The notes below the pieces were generated by a model that made no database searches, was not told where the DNA came from, and saw only the letters and a program-made list of their open reading frames with translations. This document shows, in pieces, positions 681-13,429 of a stretch of DNA of 13,429 nt. The position numbers and the translations under genes are program-made. Source of the stretch: Lentisphaerota bacterium (GTDB lineage Bacteria > Verrucomicrobiota > Kiritimatiellia > JAAZAB01); assembly GCA_012514555.1 (NCBI GenBank), contig JAAZAB010000165.1, positions 1-13,429 on the forward strand. The letters are read 5' to 3'. Positions within the stretch are counted from its first letter, which is position 1, and the number at the start of each line of letters is the position of its first letter.

Positions 681-1289
681 ATGGAAACACTGGGCGCCTG
701 GTGGAACGGGCTGGGAACCGTGAACCAATGGTTTTACGGCGTGGCCTTCTTTTTCGGCGCGATCTTTCTGTGGCAGATGATCATGTCATTCATCGGCCTG
801 GAACATGACGTGGGGCTTGACACCCAGGTCGAGCCCGACTCAGTTCACGATACGCCGGACGACGCCACCCAGACCCTGGCGGCTTTCAAATTAATCAGCA
901 TCCGCTCAATCCTGGCCTTTCTGACGCTCTTCTCCTGGGGCGGCGCATTGTACCTCAATCAAGGCCTGCCCATGGGCCGCGCCCTGGGCTACTCCATTCT
1001 GTGGGGCCTGGCAGCCATGCTGGCGGTTTCTTTTATCTTCAGCCTGATGGGCAGAATGACGGAGTCCGGAAACATAAAAATCGGCTCTTGCCTGGGCGTC
1101 AACACCACTGTTTATCTCGACATTCCAGCCGGAGGCGTGGGAGAAATACGCGTCCCTTGCAGCGGAGTCATGACCCACATCAAGGCGCGCTCCGCAAAAG
1201 GCGACGCCATAAAGGCAGGCACGCCCGTCAAGGTTGTGCGCCTGGTGGAATCCAACACCGTTGAAGTCGAAACTGTCGAAGCCGGATAG
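681..1289 (+). CDS. NfeD-like membrane protein (YuaF/YqiJ family): N-terminal transmembrane helices plus a C-terminal OB-fold beta-barrel, the usual partner of flotillin/SPFH proteins
   Basis: 202 aa. There are hydrophobic helices (GVAFFFGAIFLWQMIMSFIGL, ILAFLTLFSWGGALYL, ILWGLAAMLAVSFIFSLMG) and then a soluble C-terminus (VYLDIPAGGVGEIRVPCSGVMTHIKARSAKGDAIKAGTPVKVVRLVESNTVEV) typical of the NfeD short form. A GGAGA RBS lies 7 nt before the ATG, and the gene sits immediately upstream of a flotillin gene. Confidence 0.75.
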   Translation: METLGAWWNGLGTVNQWFYGVAFFFGAIFLWQMIMSFIGLEHDVGLDTQVEPDSVHDTPDDATQTLAAFKLISIRSILAFLTLFSWGGALYLNQGLPMGRALGYSILWGLAAMLAVSFIFSLMGRMTESGNIKIGSCLGVNTTVYLDIPAGGVGEIRVPCSGVMTHIKARSAKGDAIKAGTPVKVVRLVESNTVEVETVEAG

Positions 1290-1345
1290 CAACGCAGCCA
1301 GCCGCCGGGCAGGCTGAACGCGAATTACGAAGAAAGGAACGCGAT

Positions 1346-2920
1346 ATGAGCGAAATGCTTTTGACCAGCCTTTGGATGATCGGACAGGTTCAGCCGGATG
1401 GGAATCCCGCGCCATTCCTGGTCTTTTTCCTGCTGTTGTTCCTCATAGTCATGCTGATGACTTTCGTGCGCCGCTACAAGCGCTGCCCAGCGAACAAGAT
1501 ACTGGTAATATACGGCAAGACCGGCAGCGGCGCGGCCAAGTGCATTCACGGCGGCGCCAAGTTCGTCTGGCCCCTGCTTCAGGCGTACGATTTCCTGGAC
1601 CTCGAGCCGTTCGTGGTGCCCATAGATTTGTCCAACGCGCTTTCGCAGGAAAACATCCGCGTGAGCGTTCCCACCTCGGTCACCGCCGCCATATCCAACC
1701 AGCCGGGGATCATGGAAAACGCGGCCGTCCGCCTGCTCGGGCTTACGACCCAGCAGATACAGACCCAGGCCCAGGACATCATCATCGGCCAGATGCGCGC
1801 GGTCATAGCCACCATGCGCATCGAGGACATCAACCGCGACCGCCAGGCCTTCATGAGCAAGGTCAACGAAGCCGTGGCCGTCGAGCTGGAAAAGATCGGA
1901 CTCTCCCTCATCAACGTGAACATCCGCGACCTTGACGACGAGTCCGGCTACATCAAGGCCATAGGCCGCAAGGCTGCGGCCGAGGCGGTCAACCAGGCCA
2001 ACGTGGACGTTGCCGAGCAGGAAAAGACGGGACAGACCGGCGTTGCGGAACGCCAGCGCGACCAGCGCGTTGCCGTTGCGGCCGCCACGGCGGACGCCCA
2101 GATCGGGGAATGGGAAGCCGAAAAGCGCAGGCGCCAGCAAGTTGCCGCGGCCCAGGCCCAGGCCGAGATCGGGGAAGCCGCGGCCGACCGTGAAAAACGC
2201 CAGAACATAGCCCGCCTCGACGCGGAAGCCGTCCATGCCGAGACCGACGCCAACGCGCAGAAGGCCCGGTTCCGCGCCGACCAAAAGGTTGCCGAAGAGG
2301 AATCGCGCAACAAGGGCGATTCCGCGTCGCGCGAAGCGGACGGCGCAATCCGCGTGGCCCAGGAGACAGCCGAGAAGAAGGCTGAAGACGCCCGCGCAAT
2401 CCGCGAGCAGTCCCGGCTCAACGCCGAGATCGTAGTGCCGGCTGAAGCGCAGCGGAAAAAGATAGTGATCGGCGCGGAGGCCGAGAAGCAGCAGGCCGTG
2501 CTCGTGGCCCAGGGCCAGGCCGACGCCATGCTCGCCAGGATGACGGCCGAGGGGCGTGGCGTCCAGGCAGTGCTTGACGGCAAGGCCCAGGGCTACCGGA
2601 ACCTCGTGGCGTCAGCCGGCGATCCCCAGGTTGCGACCTCGCTGCTCATCATTGAGAAGCTCCTGGAAATATCGCACGTCCAGGCCCAGGCCATCCAGAA
2701 CCTGCCGCTCGAAAAGATAGTTGTCTGGGACGGCGGCGGAACGGGCGCCGGCGGCGTGGCGGAGCTCGGCAGGAGAATCATGGGCGTGCTCCCGCCAATG
2801 CACGAGCTGGCGCGCCAGGTCGGCCTTGATTTGCCCGAATTCCTCGGCAAGATCAATGCCGCCGCAAAGGCGGAGGCGGCAAAAACGCCGCCTGAATCCG
2901 ACACAGGGGCCAAGTCCTGA
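1346..2920 (+). CDS. Flotillin-like SPFH/band-7 protein (FloT/YqiK family) with a long Ala/Glu/Gln-rich coiled-coil region
   Basis: 524 aa. It has an N-terminal TM segment (PFLVFFLLLFLIVMLMTF) and an SPFH core (KILVIYGKTGSGAAKCIHGGAKFVWPLLQAYDFLDLEP...ENIRVSV...IIGQMRAVIATMRIEDINRDRQAF). An extended AEAEKRRRQQVAAAQAQAEIGEAAADREKRQ-type EA-repeat coiled coil follows. A GAAAGGAA RBS precedes the ATG. Confidence 0.85.
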   Translation: MSEMLLTSLWMIGQVQPDGNPAPFLVFFLLLFLIVMLMTFVRRYKRCPANKILVIYGKTGSGAAKCIHGGAKFVWPLLQAYDFLDLEPFVVPIDLSNALSQENIRVSVPTSVTAAISNQPGIMENAAVRLLGLTTQQIQTQAQDIIIGQMRAVIATMRIEDINRDRQAFMSKVNEAVAVELEKIGLSLINVNIRDLDDESGYIKAIGRKAAAEAVNQANVDVAEQEKTGQTGVAERQRDQRVAVAAATADAQIGEWEAEKRRRQQVAAAQAQAEIGEAAADREKRQNIARLDAEAVHAETDANAQKARFRADQKVAEEESRNKGDSASREADGAIRVAQETAEKKAEDARAIREQSRLNAEIVVPAEAQRKKIVIGAEAEKQQAVLVAQGQADAMLARMTAEGRGVQAVLDGKAQGYRNLVASAGDPQVATSLLIIEKLLEISHVQAQAIQNLPLEKIVVWDGGGTGAGGVAELGRRIMGVLPPMHELARQVGLDLPEFLGKINAAAKAEAAKTPPESDTGAKS

Positions 2921-3072
2921 TGCGGTTCAACCCAGATTAGCGTTTGAAAAATGAACTATACTTACTACGGGCTGGGAGTATGTCAATACGCCTTCACCCG
3001 CTGCGCCTTGCATCTGCCGCACTCTGACCAATCGCAAAATCCGGGTTCCAAGGCCGCGGACGGCAGGCCCGA

Positions 3073-4317
3073 ATGAAGATACGCATCCTGTTCCGGTCGC
3101 TGGAGAACCGGAACTTCAGGCTTTTTTACGCCGGCCAGGGCATTTCGCTCATCGGCACCTGGATGCAGATGACGGCGGTCGCGTGGCTCGTTTGGCGAAT
3201 GAGCCACAACGCCATGCTGCTGGGCCTTGTCGGGTTCGCCTCGCGGATACCCACTTTCGTGCTTGCGCCTTTTGCCGGCGTCCTGATCGACCGCATGGAC
3301 CGGCGCCGGCTCGTCATGGCGACGCAGGCGGTGGCGATGCTCCAGGCGCTGGCGCTGGCCGGCCTGATGTTTTCCGGGTTCCTCGAGGTCTGGCATATCA
3401 TCGCGCTTTCGCTCCTGCTCGGGTTCATCAACTCTTTCGACGTGCCGGCGCGCCAGTCGTTCTTCATCCAGATGCTCGATCGGCGCGAGGATATCACGAA
3501 CGCCATTGCCCTCAACTCCACCATGGTCAACGGCGCACGGCTGATCGGCCCCTCGATTGCTGGGATCCTGATAGCGGCCTTCGGCGAAGCCGTATGTTTC
3601 CTGCTCAACGGCTTAAGCTACATCGCCGTCATTGCCGGGCTGATGATGATGCGCGTCCGTTCCAATCCGCGTCCGGCGCTGAAGACCGCGGCGCTGGACA
3701 ACCTCATCGAGGGCTTTCGCTACACCTTCGGCTTTCCGCCGATCCGCGCGCTGCTGCTCCTGGTGGCGCTGGTCAGCCTGGCGGGCGCGTCATACACGCA
3801 GCTCCTGCCCATATTCGCGCAGCAGGTCCTGCGCGGCGACGCGCGCACGCAAGGGTTCCTGGTTTCCGCGGCCGCGGTCGGCGCGCTCGGCGGGGCGCTA
3901 TACCTGGCCTCGCGCAGCAGCACGCGCGGGCTCGGGCGGCTCATAGCCATTGCGCCCACTGTTTTCGGCGCCGGCCTGATCGCCATGGGATTGTCGCAGC
4001 GGCTCTGGCTGACGCTGATGATTATGCCGGTCGTCGGGCTCGGGCTGATGGTGCAGATGGCTTCGACAAACACCATGCTGCAGACGATCGTCGAGGACGA
4101 CAAGCGCGGGCGGGTGATGAGCTTCTACTCGATGGCTTTCATGGGAATGGTTCCGCTCGGCAGCCTGGGCTCCGGCATCCTGGCGCGATTCATCGGAGCG
4201 CCATGGGTGGTGATTCTCGGCGGCGCCTGCTGCATCGCGGCATCGGCCGTCTTCGTCCAAAGGCTGCCGGCCCTGCGCATCCTGGTCCACCCTGTTATGC
4301 CGGCGGATGCACAATGA
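3073..4317 (+). CDS. MFS transporter, DHA3/EntS-like (enterobactin-exporter family), ~12 TM helices
   Basis: 414 aa. The N-terminus (FRLFYAGQGISLIGTWMQMTAVAWLV) and motifs (LLGLVGFASRIPTFVLAPFAGVLIDRMDRRR, NGLSYIAVIAG) are characteristic of the MFS_3/EntS family. Hydrophobicity is consistent with 12 TM helices. Confidence 0.85.
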   Translation: MKIRILFRSLENRNFRLFYAGQGISLIGTWMQMTAVAWLVWRMSHNAMLLGLVGFASRIPTFVLAPFAGVLIDRMDRRRLVMATQAVAMLQALALAGLMFSGFLEVWHIIALSLLLGFINSFDVPARQSFFIQMLDRREDITNAIALNSTMVNGARLIGPSIAGILIAAFGEAVCFLLNGLSYIAVIAGLMMMRVRSNPRPALKTAALDNLIEGFRYTFGFPPIRALLLLVALVSLAGASYTQLLPIFAQQVLRGDARTQGFLVSAAAVGALGGALYLASRSSTRGLGRLIAIAPTVFGAGLIAMGLSQRLWLTLMIMPVVGLGLMVQMASTNTMLQTIVEDDKRGRVMSFYSMAFMGMVPLGSLGSGILARFIGAPWVVILGGACCIAASAVFVQRLPALRILVHPVMPADAQ

Positions 4318-4377: not shown

Positions 4378-4429
4378 GGCCGCCGGACATGCGCGGCAAA
4401 TCGCGCCACGCCGTGGCGCGCTACAGAAG
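4378..4429. terminator. 52-bp repeat element, copy 2 (inverted relative to copy 1), between the convergent MFS and tad-like operon 3' ends; the - strand RNA would read GC-rich hairpin + AUUUG, a likely bidirectional or operon terminator
   Basis: The 36-bp core CGGCAAATCGCGCCACGCCGTGGCGCGCTACAGAAG (4394-4429) is the reverse complement of 139-174. The palindrome CGCGCCACG-C-CGTGGCGCG lies at 4403-4421. It sits in the 135-bp gap between the MFS stop (4317) and the ATPase stop (4453). Confidence 0.5.
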
Positions 4430-4452
4430 GCAAGGCGGGCGCGCATCCGGCT

Positions 4453-5541
4453 TCAGGCGCGCTCATCGGCCCATGGCTCGGGCAGGTTGAGGCGCCTGGC
4501 CTCTTCGGCGAAGCGCGGCGTTGCGCCGGTGAAAACGTGATGCCCGGCCACCTTTCCATCGGGCGCGAGGCCTTCGGGCCTGAAGACATAAATATCCTGC
4601 ATTTTATAGACGCCCTCCTCGAGCCCGAGGACCTCGGAAATATGCGTTATTTTGCGGGAGCCGTCGGAGAGGCGGGCGGTCTGGATAATCACGCCGATCG
4701 CGCCTGCGACCATGGCGCGGACAGCCGGCATGGGGATGTCAATCCCGCTCAGGAGCGTGCAGGTTTCGAGGCGCGAGAGCGTGTCCAGGGGCGTGTTCGC
4801 ATGAATGGTGGACATGCTCCCGGCATGGCCAGTGTTGAGCGCCTCGAGCAGGTCCAGAGCCTCTCCGCCCCGCACCTCGCCGATCACCAGCCGGTCCGGG
4901 CGCAGGCGCAGGGCCGCTATGAGCAGGTCGCGTATCGTGACCTCGCCCTTGCCGTCCTTGTCGGGCTTTCGCGTCTCGAAGCGCACGGTGTGCGGCTGCT
5001 GGAGTTGAAGTTCGCTGGCGTCCTCGATAACCAGGATGCGTTCGCCCGGGTCTATGATGCCGCTGAGCACGTTCAGGACCGAGGTTTTTCCCGACGAGGT
5101 GGCGCCGGAAACGACAAGGTTCTTGTGGAGCCGGACGATGGTCTCGATCAGGCGCACACCGCCTTCCGAAATGCTGCCGAACCTGACAAGCTCGGCAGGC
5201 GTCAGCTTCTCCTTTCTGAACTTGCGTATGGAAACCACCGTTCCGGTCCGAGACAGCGGGGGTATGACGGCCTCGAGGCGGGAGCCGTCCGGCAGGCGCG
5301 CTTCGAGAATGGGGTTTTCCTCGCCGAGCATGCGGCCGACGCTCCGGGCAACGTTCATGGCGGCCGCTCGCAGCGCGTTCTCGCTGCAGAAGCAGGCATT
5401 GGTGCTCTCGATCCGGCCCCGCCGCTCCACGTAGATTCGGTCCGGGCCATTGATCATTATTTCCGAGACATCAGGATCGTCAAGGAACGGCGCAATCGGC
5501 TCGAAGAAAAGATACAGGAATGCATTCGGATCGGTTGGCAT
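4453..5541 (-). CDS. Short CpaF/TadA/VirB11-family secretion ATPase (N2 + C-terminal ATPase domains only, no N-terminal extension); the second ATPase of the operon
   Basis: 362 aa. Walker A is GATSSGKTS, the Asp box/Walker B are [12 protein letters not shown] and [13 protein letters not shown], and the His box is [13 protein letters not shown]. The N-terminal [22 protein letters not shown] is the typical start of the CpaF N2 domain. An AGGGGA RBS lies 8 nt upstream, and only 10 nt separate it from the upstream gene stop. Confidence 0.85.
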
Positions 5542-5551
5542 CGAGTTTCCC

Positions 5552-7444
5552 CTATTTGCTCAAAAACGGCTTTTCACGGCTTGGAATGACTTCCTCGCCG
5601 CCGGCCGGAAAACTGCCCTTGCCCCGGCCGCCCGCCTGTTCGGACGGCTGCGCAGGGGCAGCCGCCCGGCCCGGGGCTGATTCTCCGCCTTTGGGCGCCT
5701 GGTCCTTGGCCGCCGGAGCCGCCGGAGCGGGCTGCGCCGGGAGAATGGAAGCGCCGCTTTTGAGACGCCGGTCGATCACGGCCCGGGCGTCCTGTTCGGC
5801 AGGCAGGAGCGCGCGCAGTTCCTTGAGGCGTTTCCGGGCCATGGCGGCATACTGGTCCGAGGATGAGGCCACATCGAGAATCTGCATGTAAAGGGCGGCC
5901 GCGTCGCGAACGGAGCCGCGCGACTCGAGCACATAGGCTTTGTTGAAGGCTGTCCCGGTAAAAGCGGCGATGTCCATGCGCAGCCGCGCAAACTCGGCAT
6001 CATGCCCGGGTGACCCGGCGGCAAAGCCGGCGATCAGGAGACTTTTCAGCGCTCGGCTGTTCAGCCTGGCCGCCTCGTAGAGCTCGCCGCGCGCCTTGGC
6101 CGCGGCGGCGTCCGCCATCGCTTTCCGGCCATCCTGCTCGTATTCCTCACGGCCGGGGCCCAGGCGCTTGCGAAGATCGTCCATTCTGGCCAACGCGATC
6201 GTCCTGGCGCCGGGATAGTTCCGGAACGCCGGAGAATCCAGGAGAGCGGTCCCGGCCTCGATGGCCGCGACGTCATTGCTTTGCGCCAGAAGCGCGTCCA
6301 GCGCGGCAGCCTGGGCCAGTAGATTCCCGCGGGCGGCGAGGTCGGCTTTCTGGGAGAAGGACAAGCCGGCCTGCGCCGCCAGGCCAGAGCACACGGACTG
6401 CGCGTCCGGTATCCGCCAGGCATTGAACATGTCATCGGCCTGCTTGAACTGGCCGGCAAGCTCAATCTGGCGCCCGGCCAGGCTGACCAGGTCCTGGCGC
6501 TTGTACTCGTTCAACACCTTCGCGCCGTCAAGAACGGAGAGAACGTCGGCATATCGGGCCTGTTGAAGAAATGCGGCGGCCTTTTCGCAGGCCTCCTCGC
6601 CGCGGAGGTAGGCTTCGAATTCCGACACCTGGCCGTCCGCGGGCGACATTGTCTTCATGCGCTCCAGCGCGCGCCGGGCGCGGGGGATGTCGCCGCTGTC
6701 AATGCACTCCATGCCTTCGGCAAAAGCCTCCTGCATGTGCGCGCCCCGGATTGCGCGCAGGAGGCCGAGCGCCTGAGTATTGCGCGGGTCCAGCGCGACC
6801 GACTCGTTCAACAGGGCCGCGGCCGCCAGGTAATCGTTGCTTGCATAAAGCGCATACTGCCCCTGCTGCATCAGCTGCGCGGCGCGGCGATAGATGTCGG
6901 CCCTGCCATTCAGGGCGGACCCCTCGCCGGGGCCGGGGCCGGCCGGGGCGTTGGACTCCGCGTTAAGCGCCGGAGCAGGCCCGGCCGCCGGGCTGTCGTC
7001 CGCCTGCGGCCGGGCTCTCTTCAACATCCAAGCGGCCAGGGTCGCCAGGCACAGGACAAGGAGAACGGCAACGAGCATCTTGTTCCTGGATCCGGGCGCG
7101 GCCGCGCCGACCGCTCCCTCGTGCGCCGGCACGATGAAGTTGAAATCTCCCAGCGCGACCTGTTTTCCGGGCCGGAGATTCGCTTCGCGCCGGGCAAGCC
7201 GGCGCCCATCCACCTGCACGCCGTTCACGCTGCCAAGGTCGCGGATGTAAAGGCCCCGGGGCGTGAGCGCAAGCTCGGCGTGCCTTGGCGCAAGCGAAGG
7301 GGAATCCAGGCAAAAGTCGCAGAGCGCATCGCGGCCGAGAACGCGCGGCTTGCCGCCGAGAGGCAACTCCAACTCAAGGACGTCGGAGCCGTCGCGGCGC
7401 TTCAGCGCAATTTTCAGGGAAGGCACAAGGTTTTCTTCATTCAC
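5552..7444 (-). CDS. Bitopic membrane protein: N-terminal cytoplasmic FHA domain, single TM helix, large periplasmic Ala-rich TPR-like repeat domain
   Basis: 630 aa. The FHA signature is RVLGRDALCDFCLDSPSLAPRHAELALTPRGLYIRDLGSVNGVQVDGRRLARREANLRPGKQVALGDFNF (the GR...SR-H...S-NG...GD pattern). The TM helix is MLVAVLLVLCLATLAAWML. The C-terminal ~480 aa are helical and Ala/Leu-rich with TPR-like periodicity (AAALLNESVALDPRNTQALGLLRAI..., AAFLQQARYADVLSVL...). A GGAG RBS is present. Confidence 0.7.
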   Translation of the reverse strand: MNEENLVPSLKIALKRRDGSDVLELELPLGGKPRVLGRDALCDFCLDSPSLAPRHAELALTPRGLYIRDLGSVNGVQVDGRRLARREANLRPGKQVALGDFNFIVPAHEGAVGAAAPGSRNKMLVAVLLVLCLATLAAWMLKRARPQADDSPAAGPAPALNAESNAPAGPGPGEGSALNGRADIYRRAAQLMQQGQYALYASNDYLAAAALLNESVALDPRNTQALGLLRAIRGAHMQEAFAEGMECIDSGDIPRARRALERMKTMSPADGQVSEFEAYLRGEEACEKAAAFLQQARYADVLSVLDGAKVLNEYKRQDLVSLAGRQIELAGQFKQADDMFNAWRIPDAQSVCSGLAAQAGLSFSQKADLAARGNLLAQAAALDALLAQSNDVAAIEAGTALLDSPAFRNYPGARTIALARMDDLRKRLGPGREEYEQDGRKAMADAAAAKARGELYEAARLNSRALKSLLIAGFAAGSPGHDAEFARLRMDIAAFTGTAFNKAYVLESRGSVRDAAALYMQILDVASSSDQYAAMARKRLKELRALLPAEQDARAVIDRRLKSGASILPAQPAPAAPAAKDQAPKGGESAPGRAAAPAQPSEQAGGRGKGSFPAGGEEVIPSREKPFLSK

Positions 7445-7462
7445 AGGTTCGGCTCCGCTCGA

Positions 7463-8491
7463 TCAGGGGTTGAATCTCACCCGTTCCGCCTCGTCCCATT
7501 TCCGGGCCCCGTACTTGAACTGCCATGAATTGCGGTCCGGGAACAGGCGCATGATGCAGTCTGCCGCATCGAAGGCATCCGGCTTGTTTCCAAGCCCGAG
7601 CGCCTGTTCCAGGCGTCGGCGCTGGCGGTAGAAAGTTTCCTCGCGGAAGAAGAAGCACAACTGCATCTGCGCCAGGGCCGCATCATATTCGGCGGGCCTC
7701 GGGTCCCGGCGGTATGTGGCGGCCAGCGCCGCGGCGTACTGCTGCATGGCGCCGTTGTAGTAATTCACGTTGGAGTCGCGCCCCATGAGAAGTTCATTAC
7801 CGTAGCGGATGGCGTTGGCGACATCGTTGCTTGTCGCAAGGGCCGGAAGCCGCCGAACAAAGGATTCCCCCGCCAGCCTGGCGTCCTGCAAAGGCGCAAT
7901 GGAAACGCCCTTGATGAAGCCGTCGAACAAGTCCGGACCGTTCGTCAAGGCCGCGGGAAAGACGAACAGGAACCTGTAGGAGTCCGTTTCGTTTTTGACG
8001 ACCAGGCCCAGGACGGCCATCTTTGCAGTGTCGCCCGAGAACCTGACGGCCGGGCATCCGAAAAGGTTGGTTGGCGCCCTGTCCAGGAGCACGAACCCGG
8101 GATAGACAAGCCGCGCGCTGCTTTGAAAATTATCCACCTCGGTGTCCATGTCCAGGAGGCAGCGGCAGGGGTCGCGGTTCGCGTCATAGAACATCGTCGC
8201 CTCTGTTCCGGGGCACTCGAACTGGCGCTTGGCCAGCATGCTGAGGGACTCCATCTGCACCCAGCCCGGCGGCATCCGGATAACGGCGGCGAACTCGCTG
8301 TCCTCGTACAAGTCCGGAGTTTTTTTTGCGGAATCGCGGCAGCCGGCGCTTCCGGCGGCCGCGAGCGCGAGCAGAAGCGCGGGCGCCAGGCGCATTATAA
8401 AATCCGGCAGGCGCATCCCGCGCCCGGATCCGTCCGACGGCATGAGCGCGCGCGGGGCGCCGGGCAATTCCGTATCAGGGCTCATTATCAT
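7463..8491 (-). CDS. Putative lipoprotein of unknown function (lipobox LAAAGSAGC); start codon uncertain (internal ATGs at 8416 and 8395 give a cleaner signal peptide)
   Basis: 342 aa in the longest ORF. MRLAPALLLALAAAGSAGC fits a type-II signal peptide with a lipobox Cys. I recognise no conserved domain. The gene is tightly packed in the operon, 18-19 nt from each neighbour. Confidence 0.55.
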   Translation of the reverse strand: MIMSPDTELPGAPRALMPSDGSGRGMRLPDFIMRLAPALLLALAAAGSAGCRDSAKKTPDLYEDSEFAAVIRMPPGWVQMESLSMLAKRQFECPGTEATMFYDANRDPCRCLLDMDTEVDNFQSSARLVYPGFVLLDRAPTNLFGCPAVRFSGDTAKMAVLGLVVKNETDSYRFLFVFPAALTNGPDLFDGFIKGVSIAPLQDARLAGESFVRRLPALATSNDVANAIRYGNELLMGRDSNVNYYNGAMQQYAAALAATYRRDPRPAEYDAALAQMQLCFFFREETFYRQRRRLEQALGLGNKPDAFDAADCIMRLFPDRNSWQFKYGARKWDEAERVRFNP

Positions 8492-8510
8492 TCATCCTCC
8501 TGTCCCGGCG

Positions 8511-8858
8511 TCATTCGATCAGCCTCAGAGCGTCGCCGATGGCCAGCGCCCAGCGCGACAGCGAGCCGGCCGCGGTTTCCAGCGTATGCCGCCCGCCGGG
8601 GTCCCCGCAGACGAGCATGCGCCATGGCTTCAGGTTTTCCGCCAGCCCGGCAACGCGCCATTCAGCGTCGAGAAATATCACGTCTATGGGCATGCGCATG
8701 AAAAACGTGTGTATGGCGCGGCAGTCCGGGAAGAACATGCCCTCGCCCGGCTCCAGCCCAACCCGGCCCATCAGGCCGCGCATGCGTTTGCGCAGGCTGA
8801 ACGCGCCGGCCACGCCGGTCAGCAGCACCCGCCCTGTTGTTGCATGCTCAAGGATCAT
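8511..8858 (-). CDS. DUF192 (UPF0127/COG1430) family protein
   Basis: 115 aa. Family-typical motifs are GLMGR, GMFF, IHTFFMRMPIDVIFLD and TLETAAG. The size and order of the motifs match DUF192. Confidence 0.7.
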   Translation of the reverse strand: MILEHATTGRVLLTGVAGAFSLRKRMRGLMGRVGLEPGEGMFFPDCRAIHTFFMRMPIDVIFLDAEWRVAGLAENLKPWRMLVCGDPGGRHTLETAAGSLSRWALAIGDALRLIE

Positions 8859-8870
8859 ATTGGCCCAGTG

Positions 8871-9794
8871 TCATTGGTTCATGTAGTACTGGATCATGAC
8901 AGGCCCGATCAGCATGATCAGGATTGACGGAAAGATGCAGCTTAGCAGGGGCAGCAGCATTTTGACGGGCGCTTCCATCGCCAGCTTTTCCACATATTGC
9001 GCCTTGCGCTCCCGGAACTCGCGGGCCTGGATGCGAAGGAGCGGGCCGAGCTCCGTGCCCAGTTCCTCGGCCTGGGTCATCATGTCGATTGTCACGGTAA
9101 TCGGCTCAATGCCTATGCGCCTGGCCATGTCCTTCATGGCATTGACGCGCCGCGCGCCGAGGTGGATTTCGTTGAGCAGGCGCATCAGCTCCTCCGAGAG
9201 CGGGCTCAGCGGAATGTTGCCCACGATCCGCTGGATCGCTATGGTCATGTCCATTCCGGATTCCATGGACAGCGTCAGCAGATCGAGAAAAAATGGCCAG
9301 TCGGACAGAATCTGGCGCCGGCGCGCGGCCCGGGCATTGTCGAGCGGCAGCACGGGAAAGAAGAAGGCCGCAAGGGCCAGGATGGCGACAAAGAGCAGGC
9401 CCGAGCCCAGGTCGGACTCCCGCTCGTGCGCGCGCTGGAAAACGAAGAGCAATGCCGCGCCGAGCGCGCCGGAGCCCAGCGCAAGAACGAACTGCAGCGA
9501 AACCATCTCCTCGGGCGTGAGAGCGGTGTCCACGCCGGCCTGGCGCAGCCGCGTGCGCATTCCGCGCACGAGGGCGTTATCCGCGCCAAGAACCCTGTTG
9601 AGGAGCCGCGTCATTCCGTGCAGCAGGGGTGTGATCCAGAGCATCCAGCCCACGCGCTTGCGCCGGTATTGCGACAGGAACATCCCGTAGCCTTCCATGC
9701 GCTTTGCCAGGAGCGAATAGGCCAGCATGACGGTGGCCGCGAAAAGCAGGATCAAGCCCAGCGTCATTTCATTGAACAATTCGCTCATGCCCAC
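8871..9794 (-). CDS. tadC: Tad/Flp platform protein TadC-like (GspF/T2SSF family, polytopic inner-membrane protein)
   Basis: 307 aa. It has an N-terminal TM helix, a cytoplasmic T2SSF domain (TLSMESGMDMTIAIQRIVGNIPLSPLSEELMRLLNEIHLG...), and C-terminal TM helices (LLPLLSCIFPSILIMLIGPVMI). It starts 6 nt after the tadB stop. Confidence 0.8.
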   Translation of the reverse strand: MGMSELFNEMTLGLILLFAATVMLAYSLLAKRMEGYGMFLSQYRRKRVGWMLWITPLLHGMTRLLNRVLGADNALVRGMRTRLRQAGVDTALTPEEMVSLQFVLALGSGALGAALLFVFQRAHERESDLGSGLLFVAILALAAFFFPVLPLDNARAARRRQILSDWPFFLDLLTLSMESGMDMTIAIQRIVGNIPLSPLSEELMRLLNEIHLGARRVNAMKDMARRIGIEPITVTIDMMTQAEELGTELGPLLRIQAREFRERKAQYVEKLAMEAPVKMLLPLLSCIFPSILIMLIGPVMIQYYMNQ

Positions 9795-9800
9795 CCCGGC

Positions 9801-10664
9801 CTAAAGACGAATGGATACTATCTTGCGGATCATGAAGAACCCGATAACGTCAAGCACCACGACTGCCGCCAGCATGGCCCAGCCCATCATTGTAGTGTAC
9901 ATCAGCCGCATCAACTCCGGGTTGATGAAATGGATGATGATGCCCAGGGCCACGGGAATAAGCACCACGATGATGGCCTGGAGTTTGCCCTGGCTTGTCA
10001 GGGCCTTGATCTTGCCGTCTATCCGGTTGCGCTCGCGTATCGTGTCGCTGAGCTGGCCGAAGACCACCGGCAGTTCGCCGCCGGTCTGTATCGTCAGGCG
10101 GACCGCGGCGACGAGAAGCATCAGGTCCGCGTCGTTCAGGCGCTTGTTCATGTTTTCAAGGGCTTCCTCGATGCGCACGCCGAGGTTGATCTCGCGCACG
10201 GTAAGCCGGAACTCCTGCCCGGCCGGGTCCGGGAGCTGGCGCGCGGCCAGGTCAAGAGCCTGGAGAAAAGAAAAGCCGCTGCGCAGTCCGTTGCTGATGG
10301 TGTTCATTGCGGCGATGAGCTGGGAATTGAACTTCTCACGGCGCCGGGCGACCTTCATGTGAATGAGAATGTCCGGGATGAACGCGCCAATGCCGGCGGC
10401 CGCGGCGGCCAGGATAAAAGGGACGGGGCGCATGAGGCCGGACGACACGACGAGCGCGATGACGCCCAGCAGGAAGGCCGATATCACCTTCATATGCATC
10501 AGGCGCTCCACGGGAATGAACGAGGCGCCCTGCTGGATCAGCTCGGCCGTGCGGCCAAGGTAACGCTCCTCGTACTCGCCATAGCCGCCCGCAAGCGAGC
10601 GGAGCAGGAGAAAAAACAGCAGGCTGACCGAGATGAACGAGACCGCTAGAATTACTGCCAGCAT
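9801..10664 (-). CDS. tadB: Tad/Flp platform protein TadB-like (GspF/T2SSF family); the real start is at the ATG at 10664, not the longer track ORF reaching 10874
   Basis: 287 aa from MLAVILAVSFISVSLLFFLLL. The T2SSF domain is FSFLQALDLAARQLPDPAGQEFRLTVREINLGVRIEEALENM...LTIQTGGELPVVFGQLSDTIRERNR. A GGGGA RBS lies 7 nt upstream. The longer ORF-track version overlaps the upstream ATPase gene in another frame. Confidence 0.8.
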   Translation of the reverse strand: MLAVILAVSFISVSLLFFLLLRSLAGGYGEYEERYLGRTAELIQQGASFIPVERLMHMKVISAFLLGVIALVVSSGLMRPVPFILAAAAAGIGAFIPDILIHMKVARRREKFNSQLIAAMNTISNGLRSGFSFLQALDLAARQLPDPAGQEFRLTVREINLGVRIEEALENMNKRLNDADLMLLVAAVRLTIQTGGELPVVFGQLSDTIRERNRIDGKIKALTSQGKLQAIIVVLIPVALGIIIHFINPELMRLMYTTMMGWAMLAAVVVLDVIGFFMIRKIVSIRL

Positions 10665-10680
10665 GTCGGAATCCCCGCGC

Positions 10681-12306
10681 TCATTTGACGACGAAAATGC
10701 CCATGTCCACGTCCACGCCCCGCTCGCGCAGGCGCATGATGAAGTTCGGGATCGTGCCCGTGGGCTGGAATTCGCCCACAACCCGGCCCTCGGCGTCGTA
10801 GCCCGACTGGCGGAACTCGAATATGTCCTGGAGCGCGATCTCTCCGCCCCCGGCCATGGGCAGCACCTCGGCAATGGCCATGACCTTTCTTGAGCCGTCC
10901 GAAAGGCGCGAGACCTGGCAGACCAGGTTCACGGCCGCCCCGATCTGCTGGCGGATGGCGGCCACGGGCAAATCCATTCCCGACATCAGCACCAGCGTTT
11001 CAAGGCGGGCCATCACATCCTTCGGCGAGTTCGCGTGCACGGTGGTGAGCGACCCGTCATGCCCCGTGTTCATGGCCTGCAGCATGTCAAGGGCCTCCCC
11101 GCCGCGGCACTCGCCGACAACTATGCGGTCGGGCCGCATGCGCAGCGCGTTCCGGACGAGCGTGCGTATGGAAATCTCGCCCTTGCCTTCGATGTTCGGC
11201 GGGCGCGCCTCCATGCGCACCACGTGCTCCTGGTCAAGGCGCAGCTCCGCGGCGTCCTCGATGGTCACGATGCGCTCGGCGCGCGGAATGAACGAGGACG
11301 CGATGTTGAGGAGCGTTGTCTTGCCGGAGCCGGTGCCGCCCGAGATGACCGTGTTCTGCCTGCGCTCGACCGCGATCCTGAGAAAAGCCGCCATCGCGGG
11401 GCTGAGCGTCTTGAACCCCACCAGGTCCTCCATCGTCAGCGGCTTTGCGGGGAACTTGCGGATGTCGAGGGATGCGCCGTCAATGGCCACGGGCGATATC
11501 ACCGCGTTCACCCTGAAACCGTCCGGAAGGCGCGCGTCAACGATCGGGGAGCTTTCGTCAATGCGCCGCCCGAGCGGGCCCACGATGCGCTCGATGATGG
11601 CCTCGAGCTGGCCGGGGCTGTCAAACTTGCGGTTCGAGGGCGCAAGCCTGCCCCTGCGCTCGACAAAAATCCTGTTCCGGCCGAAGCACATTATCTCCGT
11701 GATCTCCGGGTCGTTGATCAGGTCGTCGAGCGGGCCGAAGCCGAGCACGTCGTGCACGACCTCCTTCTGAAGCACATCGGCCGCGACGCCCTGGCGCTCG
11801 GCCTCGGCGCTCAGCTCGCCGATTATTTCGCCGATGAGCTTGCGGGCTCGCTGCCTGAGCTCCAGGGATGCCGCGGCGCCAATGGTGTCGAGGCTCTTGA
11901 GGTCCATCCGGTCGAGCAGTATCTCGTGAACCTTGCGCTTGAGCTGCTCGCGGGCGCCCGCGTTCTCCCCGATATCCGGCCTGGCGGCGGCGGCGGCATC
12001 CTCGACGTCGGACGCCTCCTCGAAGTAGATCATGTTCCATTCGCCGACGGTCAGCTTGTCGCCATTGTGCAGGCGCTGCTCGCGGCCGGCCACCGGGAGG
12101 CCGTTCACGGAAACGGGATGGCGCGAGGACACCGGCTGGACATAAAGCCAGCCGCGCACGTTCAGCACTCGGCAATGCATGCCGGCGACACCCTTTGCCG
12201 GGAGGCGAAGGTCGCAGGAGGACGACGACCCGACCGTGACGAACTCCCTGGTTTTCAGGAAAGACAGGTCCGTCTGCGTTCCGTCGGCATGGAGAAGGTA
12301 AATCAC
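10681..12306 (-). CDS. cpaF: CpaF/TadA-family secretion ATPase with an N-terminal FHA domain fused in place of the usual N-terminal extension; probable GTG start at 12306
   Basis: The FHA-like region is VIYLLHADGTQTDLSFLKTREFVTVGSSSSCDLRLPAKGVAGMHCRVLNVRGWLYVQPVSSRHPVSVNGLPVAGREQRLHNGDKLTVGEW. The CpaF N-terminal helical region follows (EQLKRKVHEILLDRMDLKSLD). Walker A is GGTGSGKTT, Walker B is DRIVVGECRGGEA, and the His box is TGHDGSLTTVHAN. The track ORF (to 12498) overlaps the secretin gene. The GTG at 12306 has a GGTGGTG RBS ~7 nt upstream and leaves a 25-nt gap after the secretin stop. Confidence 0.85.
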   Translation of the reverse strand: MIYLLHADGTQTDLSFLKTREFVTVGSSSSCDLRLPAKGVAGMHCRVLNVRGWLYVQPVSSRHPVSVNGLPVAGREQRLHNGDKLTVGEWNMIYFEEASDVEDAAAAARPDIGENAGAREQLKRKVHEILLDRMDLKSLDTIGAAASLELRQRARKLIGEIIGELSAEAERQGVAADVLQKEVVHDVLGFGPLDDLINDPEITEIMCFGRNRIFVERRGRLAPSNRKFDSPGQLEAIIERIVGPLGRRIDESSPIVDARLPDGFRVNAVISPVAIDGASLDIRKFPAKPLTMEDLVGFKTLSPAMAAFLRIAVERRQNTVISGGTGSGKTTLLNIASSFIPRAERIVTIEDAAELRLDQEHVVRMEARPPNIEGKGEISIRTLVRNALRMRPDRIVVGECRGGEALDMLQAMNTGHDGSLTTVHANSPKDVMARLETLVLMSGMDLPVAAIRQQIGAAVNLVCQVSRLSDGSRKVMAIAEVLPMAGGGEIALQDIFEFRQSGYDAEGRVVGEFQPTGTIPNFIMRLRERGVDVDMGIFVVK

Positions 12307-12331
12307 GTTTTCACCACCACTGTTCCGCCAG

Positions 12332-13429
12332 TTACCAGATGCGGTACAATTTCGGACGCTTCCGGGGCTTTGCGCCGGCCTTGGGCCGGGGCGCCTCGGG
12401 CGCCTGGTACACGCCGGTGCGCATTTCCTCAAGGTAGGCGTCGACCCGGGGCTGAACGTCCCGCGGAATGGGCGCGGGCGCCCGGGCGCCGAACTCATCC
12501 GGCGTGAGCGCCGACAGAATCCGCGGCGTCACGATGGCCAACAACTGAGTGTCCTCGTCCTTCCTGCTCTTGGAGCCGAAAATCCAGTCCAGAACCGGGA
12601 GATCGCCGAGGATTGGGCTGCGGGACTTGTAGAAGTTCTTCATGTTCTCGAGCAGCCCGGAAAGCACTATGCTCTGCCCGACCTGGCAAACCACGGTGCA
12701 CTCGGTTTCGAACTTGTCGAGGTTGAGCTGCTCGCTCCCGGACTTGGCCGTGGGTATGGACACCGTGATCTTCATCGTGTTAAGGATTTCCTTCTCGCTC
12801 ACGAAAGAGGGCCGGACCTCGAGCTGGACGCCGTACTCCACGTTCTTCATGTCCGCGGCCTGGACGCCCGAGACCTCGTAGTAGTATTCGCCCCCGGACA
12901 GGAACTTGCCGGCCTCGTTGTTCTTGGTGCACAGGCGGGGATGCGCGAGGATGGTCGCGTTGCCTTCATCCATCAGCACCTTGAGCTGCGGCGCGATCTG
13001 GGCGGACCAGGTCAGCGTAACGTCCATGGCGCTGTAGTCGGCATCCTTGCGGGTCTGCTGGCCCTGGACGCCGCCGTTCAGGATCAGGCCCTGCCCGCCG
13101 TCGAGCAGGTTGACGCCGATGTCGAACCCGCTGCTCTTCGTGACTTTCAGGAACATGATCTCGGTTTCGATCATGACGTCCCGAACCGAGAGCATGTCCA
13201 CCACGTTCGCCACCTGGGTCCGCGCAAGGCTCAGCACGTTCGACCGCTGGCTGTTGCCGAACACGAACCCGGAAATAAAGGCGGTCTGGCCGACGAGGTT
13301 GATCTTGACGGTTTCCACGCCGGCCGTGCGCCGGATGAAATCGGCAATCACCTCGTTTGACGGGCCGCTGTCGAAAACCGCGAGGTTGACCACCACGTCC
13401 GAGAACGCGGCCGCGATTTTCTGAACGCG
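12332..13429 (-). CDS. cpaC: Secretin (CpaC/RcpA/GspD family), C-terminal secretin domain plus part of the N-domains; the N-terminus lies beyond the window end
   Basis: It carries the canonical secretin C-terminal signature ILGDLPVLDWIFGSKSRKDEDTQLLAIVTPRIL, preceded by VEYGVQLEVRPSF...KITVSIPTAKSGSEQ. The reading frame is open to the window edge. A Pro/Lys-rich basic C-terminal tail (PRPKAGAKPRKRPKLYRIW) follows the secretin motif. Confidence 0.85.
   Translation of the reverse strand, partial: RVQKIAAAFSDVVVNLAVFDSGPSNEVIADFIRRTAGVETVKINLVGQTAFISGFVFGNSQRSNVLSLARTQVANVVDMLSVRDVMIETEIMFLKVTKSSGFDIGVNLLDGGQGLILNGGVQGQQTRKDADYSAMDVTLTWSAQIAPQLKVLMDEGNATILAHPRLCTKNNEAGKFLSGGEYYYEVSGVQAADMKNVEYGVQLEVRPSFVSEKEILNTMKITVSIPTAKSGSEQLNLDKFETECTVVCQVGQSIVLSGLLENMKNFYKSRSPILGDLPVLDWIFGSKSRKDEDTQLLAIVTPRILSALTPDEFGARAPAPIPRDVQPRVDAYLEEMRTGVYQAPEAPRPKAGAKPRKRPKLYRIW

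Follow-up and report, generated by a model that had tools for sequence, protein, structure and literature searches.

The described systems closest to the locus considered here are the Flp/Tad pili of Aggregatibacter (tad) and Caulobacter (cpa), which in their canonical form are driven by a single bifunctional ATPase. The minimal CpaF motor was reported to consist of a three-helix bundle (3HB), NTD and CAD (PMC12019362). Extension relies on the N-face and retraction on the C-face, through which PilT, devoid of N1, binds (preprint 10.64898/2026.02.24.707734). The fusion of FHA to CpaF is also known: such "class III" proteins are widespread and were assigned mostly to betaproteobacteria (Yen et al. 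2025, PMC12019362). The Kil system of Myxococcus xanthus, responsible for prey killing, is encoded by two clusters with many FHA proteins, a kinase-like protein and one ATPase (Seef et al. 2021; PMC8460266).

The analysed window, a 13,429-nt stretch of a Lentisphaerota contig, contains eight co-directional genes on the minus strand at positions 4453-13429:

12332..13429, minus strand: CpaC/RcpA-type secretin, C-terminal 365 aa (Pfam Secretin, 104 bits), 5' end cut by the window
10681..12306, minus strand: FHA-CpaF, class III Tad motor ATPase (Pfam FHA, 39.9 bits, and T2SSE, 204 bits)
9801..10664, minus strand: TadB/CpaG-type inner-membrane platform protein, 287 aa (Pfam T2SSF, 63 bits; hydropathy)
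8871..9794, minus strand: TadC/CpaH-type inner-membrane platform protein, 307 aa (Pfam T2SSF, 51 bits; TM segments)
8511..8858, minus strand: DUF192 protein, 115 aa (Pfam DUF192, 67 bits)
7463..8491, minus strand: putative lipoprotein, 342 aa (lipobox-like LAAAGSAG followed by C; no Pfam match)
5552..7444, minus strand: bitopic FHA-TM-TPR protein, 630 aa (Pfam FHA, 49.9 bits, and Yop-YscD_cpl, 44.4 bits)
4453..5541, minus strand: CpaF2, second CpaF-family ATPase, 362 aa (Pfam T2SSE; NTD and ATPase domain only)

The gene order and the domains were verified with Pfam, and the intergenic gaps from the secretin gene to cpaF2 are 25, 16, 6, 12, 19, 18 and 10 nt. The TadB-type protein has about five hydrophobic regions in the hydropathy profile, consistent with several TM helices. 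Both ATPases belong to the CpaF family, with scores of 352 and 378 bits when compared with Caulobacter CpaF structures. The initial annotation was right in that one operon derived from Tad encodes two ATPases of the CpaF type and two proteins with FHA domains.

The upstream genes lie beyond the edge of the window and were observed in near-identical contigs. Contigs L169, L170 and L171 have 96.9% nucleotide identity to positions 4429-13429 of the window, and contig L172 is 83% identical to the same region. Directly 5' of the secretin gene, L169, L171 and L172 encode two Flp-like pilins, Peptidase_A24, TadE, a TadG-like protein, a further TadE, a 294-aa secreted protein, and CpaB with SAF and RcpC domains. 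L170 is cut upstream, leaving the pilins and the peptidase outside the contig, and the other genes, from TadE to CpaB, are seen. The pilins have the Flp motifs G/QAMLEY and G/QAMTEY, although their Flp_Fap score of 24 bits is below the Pfam gathering threshold of 32.2. The peptidase scores 59 bits with A24, TadE is matched twice, and Tad/TadG scores 25.6 bits. The N-terminus of the secretin lies past the window end; a 98%-identical homologue, P0121, is 507 aa long and has a signal peptide and the T2SS-T3SS_pil_N and Secretin domains. The eight genes form the 3' half of a full Flp/Tad (type IVc) operon of 16 genes, flp-flp-tadV-tadE-tadG-tadE-x-cpaB-cpaC-(FHA)cpaF-tadB-tadC-DUF192-lipoprotein-(FHA-TM-TPR)-cpaF2.

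Only part of the initial claim of a core with no pilin, peptidase, CpaB or TadZ survives. The first three are missing inside the window because it ends within the secretin gene, and their genes sit upstream in L169-L172; TadZ is indeed absent. The reading of the locus as non-canonical largely falls, since flp, tadV, tadE/G/F and cpaB are immediately upstream in the same species and FHA-CpaF fusions are widespread.

No TadZ was found in the whole 16-gene operon or in roughly 4 kb upstream of it. This loss is general to the FHA-CpaF class, not particular to this operon. Among 154 related loci, picked by similarity to the FHA-CpaF of the window and leaving room for a TadZ elsewhere in the genome, TadZ accompanies none of the 44 FHA-CpaF genes and 94 of the 110 other CpaF genes (72 genes just upstream, 22 fused to CpaF; Fisher p = 2e-25). 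The class itself occurs in Lentisphaerota and many other phyla.

The FHA-CpaF gene starts with GTG, 25 nt past the secretin stop codon, and encodes FHA, a linker, the 3HB, NTD and the ATPase domain in this order. The alignment with Caulobacter CpaF 9e24 (378 bits) begins at residue 94 and therefore includes the 3HB. The protein carries the canonical loop-8 GRRID and pore-loop PPNIEG, matching the pattern conserved in CpaFs other than CpaF2. Its FHA domain has G-S, A-x-x-H and S-R-H-P instead of canonical G-R, S-x-x-H and S-x-N-G, and in the FHA domain of the 630-aa protein the Ser is changed to Ala. Neither kinase nor phosphatase genes were found in the operon or its flanks. Regulation by phosphothreonine signalling, proposed initially, is thus doubtful at this locus. 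In the relatives L029 and L115 the FHA-CpaF retains the canonical binding residues. The L029 operon contains genes for a Ser/Thr kinase and a PP2C phosphatase as well, and L115 has the same gene order.

One possibility is that the operon encodes a Kil-type machine, Tad-derived and assembled on contact, which would kill or grip cells as in M. xanthus under control of an FHA/phosphothreonine cascade. As in Kil cluster 1, the secretin gene is directly followed by the FHA-ATPase gene, and a KilD-like FHA-TPR protein is present; to this extent, the Kil-like character considered in the initial annotation is supported. KilD orthologues of Citreicoccus and Archangium share the FHA-TM-C-terminal layout in their hydropathy profiles, the Myxococcota MAG L005 has an unsplit version including CpaF2, and the kinase and phosphatase of L029 would fit such a cascade. 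In the ATPase tree (all trees are neighbour-joining on corrected p-distances) KilF-like sequences of Myxococcaceae are among the nearest neighbours. However, placement in a Kil clade has bootstrap of 0-15%, too low to support membership. The KilF-like orthologues retain the canonical phosphothreonine-binding residues lost in the window, where there is no kinase or phosphatase and there are two FHA proteins rather than many. Descriptions of Kil give it one ATPase and confine it to predatory deltaproteobacteria, whereas the window has two ATPases, and FHA-CpaF is present in non-predatory Thauera, Acidithiobacillus and Achromobacter. To our knowledge, no predatory lifestyle is known for Lentisphaerota. 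A Kil-type function is thus unlikely.

Three genes separate tadC from cpaF2. DUF192 is a frequent accessory after TadC, found there in 37 of 85 loci (17/26 FHA-type, 16/53 other and 4/6 TadZ-fused). The 342-aa protein has no match in Pfam or NCBIfam. Its gene is preceded by a Shine-Dalgarno box AGGAGG at 5 nt, and a signal-peptide-like hydrophobic stretch leads to a plausible lipobox at Cys51. The protein is kept in L085, L169 and L172, a narrow distribution, and a single-sequence AF2 model was too poor to use (pLDDT 33). Possibly it is a TadD-like pilotin substitute.

The 630-aa protein consists of a cytoplasmic FHA domain, one TM helix (123-141), a Pro/Ala linker, a periplasmic alpha-solenoid (about 200-560) and a disordered tail, with a conserved C-terminal peptide EVIPSRExPF. 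Residues 200-560 are modelled by AlphaFold (AF2) as an all-helical solenoid with pLDDT 80-95, whose best PDB matches in Foldseek are TPR proteins, weak at E about 1e-3. Bitopic FHA-TM proteins are encoded at this position in L005, L029, L060, L174, L175, L052 and L037, the first five of these having the FHA-TM(-TPR) gene 3' of TadC. In Myxococcaceae such a protein follows the KilF orthologue. In architecture, the 630-aa protein is KilD-like.

The last gene of the operon encodes CpaF2. It aligns only to residues 146-492 of CpaF 9e24, that is, to NTD and the ATPase domain with no 3HB. The stop codon of the previous gene is 10 nt away and only six in-frame codons precede the ATG, which leaves no space for an N-terminal extension. 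CpaF2 belongs to a clade with neighbour-joining bootstrap 100/100, which unites the second ATPases of the window, L085, L029, L115, L005, L060, L122, L124 and L132 with short CpaFs of the PVC superphylum (the Planctomycetota-Verrucomicrobiota-Chlamydiota group). The Walker A motif of the clade is GATSSGKT. Residues K287, T288, E312, E357, R217, R223 and R347 are retained in 28/28 clade members, whereas R206 is retained in 0/28 and N329 is replaced by Asp in 28/28; E331 is not among the common residues. Among the 120 closest cluster representatives, the KPD loop occurs in 117 and GRR.D in none; 93 are at most 400 aa long, and 25 have an FHA-like N-domain, still with no 3HB. The beta13-beta14 turn of the C-face (R425, D428, G429) is retained in 100% of the clade. 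The alignments indicate that all catalytic residues of CpaF2 are intact and the platform-contact residues on the N-terminal face are replaced.

Across PVC classes CpaF2 is 65-72% identical with invariant catalytic residues, pointing to strong purifying selection. The gene closes or divergently adjoins FHA-CpaF operons of Lentisphaerota, Verrucomicrobiae, Myxococcota and a deltaproteobacterial MAG, at least four lineages, and lies beside such operons in gut or soil contigs that are unassigned. The operons of Lentisphaerota, Verrucomicrobiae and Myxococcota encode FHA-TM proteins as well.

This recurrence, the position of cpaF2 inside the operon 10 nt after the preceding stop codon and the purifying selection all argue against an ordinary adhesive Tad pilus in which CpaF2 is a redundant duplicate or serves another process. 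Some observations do agree with such an unrelated role and speak against CpaF2 as a second motor. Firstly, orphan homologues (L087, L088, L173), with no tad genes within 10 kb, lie among metabolic genes in Lentisphaeria and Kiritimatiellae. Secondly, the FHA-CpaF retains all elements of a bifunctional CpaF; indeed, the partner FHA-CpaFs retain both faces and show no sign of being extension-only, hence there is no evidence of subfunctionalisation. Finally, the retraction-critical R387 is poorly conserved, being replaced by Leu in the CpaF2 of the window and retained in just 11 of 28 clade members. The orphan copies are not a strong argument against a motor role, as pilT genes are often unlinked to pil operons too. 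On balance, an unrelated CpaF2 is improbable.

It could also be suggested that CpaF2 forms no separate ring and instead co-assembles with FHA-CpaF or stacks on it as a regulatory subunit, in mixed hexamers or as a brake or checkpoint, tethered by the FHA-TM protein. The two ATPases of the operon are 47% identical across NTD and CAD, the inter-subunit Arg fingers are conserved, cpaF2 always has genes for FHA or FHA-TM proteins nearby, and an FHA-like domain is part of some clade members themselves. However, the separation of the clade with 100% support and its distinct conserved pore loop point to a separate surface, not shared with CpaF. Mixed hexamers are not known among PilT/VirB11-like ATPases, and this arrangement seems highly unlikely.

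The preferred reading, to which we assign a probability of about 0.7, is a complete Flp/Tad operon of the TadZ-less FHA-CpaF subclass with CpaF2 as a second specialised motor. By the domain identities and published knowledge of Tad, the A24 peptidase would cleave the Flp prepilins, a FHA-CpaF hexamer on the TadB/TadC platform would polymerise them, and the fibre would exit via the CpaB ring and the secretin. Given the association with TadZ loss, the FHA modules of CpaF and of the FHA-TM-TPR protein may replace TadZ in recruiting and positioning the motor, and the periplasmic solenoid could reach the layer of CpaB, secretin and lipoprotein. Since CpaF in this lineage carries an FHA domain without the canonical residues for binding phosphothreonine, the contact is probably phospho-independent, while relatives with canonical residues, such as L029 with its in-operon kinase and phosphatase, probably use phospho-control. 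CpaF2 is predicted to form catalytically competent hexamers and represents a separate, ancient clade of paralogues, which apparently lost the 3HB and exchanged the extension-face platform contacts for a different conserved set. It would engage the platform differently from FHA-CpaF; a role in retraction or as an accessory motor, comparable to PilT or PilU and exerted together with the neighbouring FHA-TM protein, is the most likely.

The operon shares with Tad/Flp the Flp pilins with G/xxxxEY, the short A24 peptidase, TadE/F/G pseudopilins, CpaB/RcpC, the CpaC/RcpA secretin, the CpaF/TadA ATPase, two single-T2SSF platform proteins and a near-canonical gene order. It differs in the absence of TadZ/CpaE and of recognisable TadD or RcpB, in the FHA domain on CpaF, and in four additional genes, DUF192, the lipoprotein, the FHA-TM-TPR protein and the 3HB-less paralogue. 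The first ATPase has the same FHA, linker, 3HB, NTD and CAD as the class III CpaF of Achromobacter xylosoxidans (E3HIW0), with non-canonical FHA binding residues; no 3HB-less paralogue is described there (PMC12019362). Besides the features discussed above, Kil has in common with the operon a Tad-type platform, CpaB, peptidase and pilins, and the main text of the Kil paper does not mention TadZ/CpaE (PMC8460266); unlike Kil, the locus is one operon. In Bdellovibrio, the available text of a preprint (10.64898/2026.07.08.737194) describes a TadZA fusion together with tadA2 and tadA3, so Tad motors vary at the N-terminus and ATPase paralogues exist. There TadZ has been fused instead of replaced, as in the 22 fusion loci recovered here; predation does not require the rcpA2-tadA2 module, and that text reports no 3HB-less architecture.

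The new element of the operon is a conserved second ATPase, a putative motor, without the 3HB, a domain that the minimal Tad motor was so far reported to include. CpaF2 belongs among the CpaF paralogues and lies outside the PilT family, with no AIRNLIRE motif and 41.6 bits against the PilT model TIGR01420 (cutoff 319), and its retraction role is presumptive. Nevertheless, the arrangement resembles the PilB/PilT (PilU) pairs of type IVa pili: two homologous ATPases, hexameric in those pairs and predicted to be so for CpaF2, serve one filament machine, one with an N-terminal N1-type domain and the other reduced to N2D and CTD at about 360 aa, the size of PilT.

The eight minus-strand genes described at 4453-13429 in the initial annotation were borne out by the Pfam analysis. 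With the most plausible starts, they are separated by gaps of 25, 16, 6, 12, 19, 18 and 10 nt, in agreement with the 6-25 nt noted there. The genes and their neighbours are as follows.

12332-13429, minus strand: secretin (Pfam), 5' end cut by the window
10681-12306, minus strand: FHA-CpaF, the first motor ATPase, with FHA and T2SSE domains (Pfam)
9801-10664, minus strand: T2SSF platform protein, 287 aa (Pfam, 63 bits)
8871-9794, minus strand: T2SSF platform protein, 307 aa (Pfam, 51 bits)
8511-8858, minus strand: DUF192 protein (Pfam)
7463-8491, minus strand: lipoprotein-like protein of 342 aa, no Pfam family
5552-7444, minus strand: FHA-TM-TPR protein of 630 aa, FHA/Yop-YscD_cpl (Pfam)
4453-5541, minus strand: CpaF2, the second ATPase, T2SSE, 362 aa (Pfam)
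681-4317, plus strand: genes of a hypothetical protein, an SPFH/Band_7 protein and an MFS_3 transporter, unrelated neighbours of the operon

The two platform proteins, TadB and TadC, are adjacent membrane proteins with one T2SSF domain apiece. Against the Caulobacter CpaF structures FHA-CpaF scores 378 bits and CpaF2 352 bits; the next PDB matches of both are archaeal GspE/FlaI proteins, at 157 bits or less. Both ATPases are below the cutoff of TIGR03819 (conjugal-transfer TadA-like proteins), which rules out membership in that family. Between CpaF2 and the convergent MFS gene, neither promoter-like nor terminator-like sites were seen.

Searching for homologues of the secretin fragment yielded a full-length secretin (P0121, 507 aa, 98% identical) on longer contigs. 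These contigs, L169, L170 and L171, have 96.9% nucleotide identity to window positions 4429-13429, and in all three the gene directly 5' of the secretin, outside the window, encodes CpaB (SAF and RcpC, 59 bits). The series 5' of the secretin in L169 and L171 is on the same strand and consists of two ORFs with Flp motifs, Peptidase_A24, TadE, a Tad/TadG-like protein, a second TadE, a secreted protein of 294 aa with no recognised family, and CpaB; L170 is cut upstream, and the series is visible there only from TadE on. The prepilin ORFs encode 59 and 91 aa with the motifs GQAMLEY(VLL) and GQAMTEY(VII), and their Flp_Fap score of 24 bits is under the gathering threshold. The peptidase has 142 aa (59 bits), and the TadG-like protein 430 aa (Tad/TadG, 25.6 bits). 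The order of all 16 genes is identical in L172, an 83% identical relative. Thus the pilin (G/xxxxEY), the short A24 peptidase and the TadE/F/G pseudopilins of Tad systems are present in L169-L172, outside the window. The absence of pilin, peptidase and CpaB, which the initial annotation had noted for the core, is an artefact of the window end, as these genes are directly upstream in contigs that are about 97% identical. From the canonical set of flp, tadV, cpaB and tadZ, whose presence upstream would speak for a standard Tad operon, three of the four items are there. Scans of genome and metagenome contigs with FHA-CpaF gave no close relative: identity did not exceed 51% over the full length and, with the ATPase core taken by itself, reached about 60%. 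These scans supplied loci for comparison.

Synteny of the window with L169-L171 stops at position 4429. The region 3' of cpaF2 contains a Peptidase_M28/FG-GAP gene in these contigs, and MFS_3, SPFH and 202-aa genes in the window. Another 83% identical contig, L085, combines the two, with a 116-aa gene and M28 followed by MFS, Band_7 and the 202-aa gene. Hence the window lineage appears to have undergone a loss of about 2.3 kb, unless the contig was mis-joined. At L085:3-2300 FHA-CpaF and TadB are called as a single 765-aa product, although they are separate genes in the equally diverged L172; the fused call probably results from misassembly or from loss of a stop codon.

The first ATPase of the operon belongs to class III, the FHA-bearing CpaFs. 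Its FHA domain (39.9 bits) occupies residues 23-88, and residues 131-206 align with the junction of the three-helix bundle (3HB) and the N-terminal domain (NTD) of CpaF (9e24 residues 94-164). The resulting architecture FHA-linker-3HB-NTD-CAD, where CAD is the ATPase domain, is that of the published class III (Yen et al. 2025, PMC12019362). The motifs of both the N-face and the C-face are all intact. FHA-CpaFs occur in Thauera, Acidithiobacillus, Chromatiales, Lentisphaeria, Victivallales, Myxococcota and others.

The operon indeed lacks TadZ, as had been annotated; this is, however, not a peculiarity of the locus. A TadZ HMM was built from five clear or verified TadZ genes and an FHA HMM from CpaF N-termini, and 166 CpaF-family genes uncut by contig ends (154 full-size, 12 short) were classified in the window plus about 165 loci used for comparison. 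No match to the TadZ HMM was obtained for any of the 44 FHA-CpaFs scanned, that of the window included. The remaining 110 full-size CpaFs have a TadZ gene just upstream in 72 cases and are fused to TadZ in 22. The mutual exclusion of FHA and TadZ (0/44 against 94/110, Fisher p = 2e-25) refers to a sample picked by similarity to the FHA-CpaF of the window and to linked genes, since an unlinked TadZ may be encoded elsewhere in a genome. Because none of the 44 FHA-CpaFs and 94 of the 110 others have TadZ, its absence is a property of the class. The secretin gene in FHA-type loci abuts the ATPase gene directly. The same is seen in the precomputed Pfam tables of L169-L172, where the secretin is followed by FHA-CpaF with no ParA/MinD-like gene. 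The strict exclusion provides a testable idea about motor recruitment in TadZ-less systems, including Kil, the Tad-derived contact-dependent killing apparatus of Myxococcus xanthus.

Several other features of these loci may be mentioned. TadZ-CpaF fusions of the Bdellovibrio type (22 loci) extend outside Bdellovibrio. The locus L175:203-7910 encodes Flp, CpaB, FHA-CpaF, TadB, TadC, FHA and 2xFHA-TPR proteins, and its CpaB and ATPase genes are not separated by a secretin gene; a secretin is present in the other closely examined loci that reach 5' of FHA-CpaF, except L007. A DUF192 gene is directly 3' of TadC in 37 of 85 Tad loci from many phyla (L006-L107). It is enriched in FHA-type loci (17/26, compared to 16/53 in the other loci, p = 0.004) and follows TadC in 4/6 TadZ-fusion loci. 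Almost nothing in the literature searched connects DUF192 with pili.

The gene of the 342-aa protein has a strong Shine-Dalgarno box, and the product starts with a hydrophobic stretch up to LAAAGSAG|C, consistent with a lipoprotein. The single-sequence AlphaFold2 model is unusable (pLDDT 33). A chimeric query combining this protein with the periplasmic part of the FHA-TM-TPR protein retrieved two homologues of the latter and none of the former. This is probably due to low-complexity words filling the candidates, and relatives of the lipoprotein are not thereby excluded.

The 630-aa protein has one transmembrane helix (residues 123-141). Residues 200-560 are modelled as an all-helical solenoid (AlphaFold2 from three sequences, pLDDT 80-95), whose best PDB matches are the TPR superhelices of SPINDLY, OGT, P58IPK and BamD, with E only about 1e-3. 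The C-terminus (window 5552-5620) is a disordered Pro/Ala/Gly-rich tail of about 60 residues. The last 13 residues, EVIPSRE-PF--K, are kept even in a 63% identical homologue (P0302) and look like a short docking peptide. Residues 178-311 weakly match, in NCBIfam, the Amuc_1098-family PilQ-like outer-membrane protein of Akkermansia in its N-terminal region (E = 4e-4); there may be a PVC-specific periplasmic TPR module common to secretins and the FHA-TM-TPR protein.

Accessory FHA proteins in the loci with CpaF2 are all bitopic, with at least one cytoplasmic FHA domain, one transmembrane helix and a C-terminal domain. Orthologues of the Kil protein KilD, encoded 3' of the KilF-like ATPase in Citreicoccus and Archangium, share this layout. 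The Myxococcaceae orthologues (L052:11244-13490, L037:2088-4367) consist of two FHA domains, a strongly hydrophobic segment and a C-terminal region, the segment being 19 residues around 300-324 with a Kyte-Doolittle value of about 2.5. KilD was published as a cytoplasmic multidomain protein (PMC8460266). Simple hydropathy suggests that its orthologues are bitopic membrane proteins like those of the PVC loci.

It was initially proposed that the machine is regulated by phosphothreonine signalling. The binding residues make this doubtful here. The FHA domain of the window CpaF has G-S, A-G-M-H and S-R-H-P in place of the canonical G-R, S-x-x-H and S-x-N-G; that of the FHA-TM-TPR protein keeps the arginine and the asparagine, and its phosphate-binding serine is replaced by alanine. 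The canonical residues are kept on the CpaFs of L005, L029, the KilF-like L052/L037, L060 and L089. Neither a kinase nor a phosphatase (Pkinase, PP2C) was found across the window, the operon and the 4 kb upstream. Ser/Thr kinases and a PP2C phosphatase are encoded in the operon of L029, where these domains were scanned for; L115 has the same gene order. Since the canonical residues are missing and no kinase or phosphatase is seen, it is more likely that the FHA domains here serve phospho-independent protein-protein contacts.

The second ATPase, CpaF2, is unusual. It aligns only to residues 146-492 of Caulobacter CpaF, that is, to the NTD and the C-terminal ATPase domain, and lacks the disordered region and the 3HB. 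There is little room for a longer N-terminus, as only six in-frame codons precede the ATG and a stop lies 10 nt upstream. In the survey of CpaF architectures 3HB-NTD-CAD is the minimum, and deletion of the 3HB abolishes the protein in Caulobacter (PMC12019362). CpaF2 is 47% identical to the FHA-CpaF of its operon. A neighbour-joining tree built from 195 ATPase cores places it in a clade apart from every other CpaF (100/100 bootstrap), together with the second ATPases of L085, L029, L115, L005 (Myxococcota), L060 (a deltaproteobacterial MAG), L122, L124 and L132. Short CpaFs of Lentisphaeria, Kiritimatiellia and Verrucomicrobiae also belong to it, and the only two-ATPase locus outside the clade is L151.

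The catalytic residues K287, T288, E312 and E357 and the arginine fingers R217, R223 and R347 (CpaF numbering) are present in 28 of 28 clade members. The N-terminal, or extension, face has changed. Loop 8, G-R-R-[IV]-D elsewhere, reads G-R-[LFVHM]-[LF]-[NDG], and R206 occurs in 0/28 members against 147/163 other CpaFs; the pore loop P-[PA]-N-[ILVM]-E-G has become K-P-D-x-x-G, with Asp for N329 in 28/28 and E331 missing from the common residues; Walker A, GGTGSGKT elsewhere, reads GATSSGKT. Judging by these alignments, the conserved platform-contact residues of this face are replaced. The signature is present in 117 of the 120 closest cluster representatives and GRR.D in none (0/120). Most of them (93/120) do not exceed 400 aa; the 25 that are longer than 470 aa have an N-terminal FHA-like domain and a Pro/Ala linker leading straight to the NTD, with no 3HB. 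A decaying duplicate is ruled out by the invariant catalytic residues and the high identity within the clade. CpaF2 is not of the PilT family either (TIGR01420 41.6 bits, cutoff 319; best PDB PilT match 38 bits). No description of a 3HB-less paralogue was found in the literature searched; as far as could be found, this paralogue and the pattern of FHA in place of TadZ are real, conserved and undescribed.

A search of 50%-identity representatives with CpaF2 yielded mostly tandem-ATPase fusions and generic CpaFs and is uninformative on the size of the clade. The top-scoring proteins, P0152-P0159 (820-1600 aa), contain two to four tandem CpaF-like ATPase stretches; they are either true multi-ATPase fusions or products of gene calling that joined separate genes.

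The cpaF2 gene is the last in the operon in the window lineage, L005 and L029/L115, and near the end in L060, where one further 577-aa ORF with no recognised family follows. In L174 (a Verrucomicrobiae MAG) and L175 it is divergent, beside Flp-CpaB-(secretin)-FHA-CpaF-TadB-TadC-FHA-2xFHA-TPR clusters. In L086 one gene separates it from a small FHA protein downstream, and in L087, L088 and L173 it is an orphan. At L174:10001-13789 (GCA_031290985.1) the 400-aa CpaF2 has beside it a 338-aa protein with three TM segments and a third T2SSE ATPase of 409 aa. All three genes run divergently to the Tad-like operon with FHA-CpaF, in what may be an arrangement with three ATPases.

How a single Tad ATPase both extends and retracts the fibre is under active debate (cryo-EM papers of 2024-2026 and the inversion model of 2026), and all characterised Tad pili use one inverting, bifunctional ATPase. 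According to the inversion model, the N-face (3HB, alpha5-loop 8, pore loop) serves extension and the C-face retraction, and PilT, which has no N1 domain, binds via the C-face (preprint 10.64898/2026.02.24.707734). The beta13-beta14 turn of the C-face (R425, D428, G429) is fully conserved in the CpaF2 clade. Given this turn, the economy of domains and the loss of extension-face residues, CpaF2 would fit a PilT- or PilU-like role. The likeness to PilT/PilU is only in domain economy (N2D plus CTD), as CpaF2 falls outside AIRNLIRE/TIGR01420. Mutation of R387 blocks retraction in Caulobacter; the window CpaF2 has Leu at this position, and only 11 of 28 clade members have Arg. No loss on the C-face is seen in the partner FHA-CpaFs, which keep both faces. 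Thus a simple split, with the retraction face retained by CpaF2 and lost by its partner, is not supported. As R387 is poorly kept and the C-face of FHA-CpaF is intact, a motor dedicated to retraction seems doubtful, and a role that is regulatory, or unrelated to the pilus, is retained as an alternative.

The scheme that we propose is as follows. The FHA modules, together with the bitopic FHA-TM-TPR protein, would take over the role of TadZ in recruiting and positioning the motor, and could also bridge it to periplasmic and outer-membrane parts. CpaF2 would be a second motor, engaging TadB and TadC differently than FHA-CpaF does. We assign a probability of about 0.3 to the full reading, namely a widespread, undescribed two-motor Tad/Kil-like subclass in the PVC superphylum, Myxococcota and others, where CpaF2 is a dedicated retraction-type or antagonistic motor recruited by FHA-TM proteins that replace TadZ. 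If true, Tad systems have independently re-invented the division of labour between PilB and PilT. CpaF2, catalytically intact by its conserved residues and recurrently linked to FHA-CpaF and FHA-TM genes across loci, suggests that some Tad-like machines have two motors. A 3HB-less ATPase with a rewritten extension face inside Tad operons is a natural experiment on the roles of faces and domains.

The locus belongs to the Tad/Flp (type IVc) family by all the features tested but TadZ: the CpaF/TadA motor, TadB and TadC, secretin and CpaB, and the pilin, peptidase and TadE/F/G set are all matched. Only the TadZ/CpaE ParA/MinD-like ATPase, which in Tad is encoded beside the motor, is missing. The initial annotation thus overstated how atypical the operon is, although the second, 3HB-less CpaF and the FHA-for-TadZ pattern are real. 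Its Kil-like reading holds for gene architecture. Both loci have a secretin followed by an FHA-ATPase, and a KilD-like FHA-TM-TPR protein, with one FHA domain here and two in the Myxococcaceae orthologues; similarity to the latter is confined to the FHA region (36-60 bits). The reading does not extend to the single ATPase, the many FHA proteins and the kinase-type partners of Kil, as this locus has two ATPases, two FHA proteins and no kinase. Moreover, KilF-like orthologues keep the FHA Arg, Ser and Asn, which the FHA domain of the window ATPase lacks. For placement relative to the Kil clade, neighbour-joining trees (ATPase core, full-length FHA-CpaF) offer only 0-15% bootstrap on every grouping above the species level. 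The Kil-like gene architecture, reported as restricted to predatory deltaproteobacteria, is extended by this locus to the PVC superphylum.
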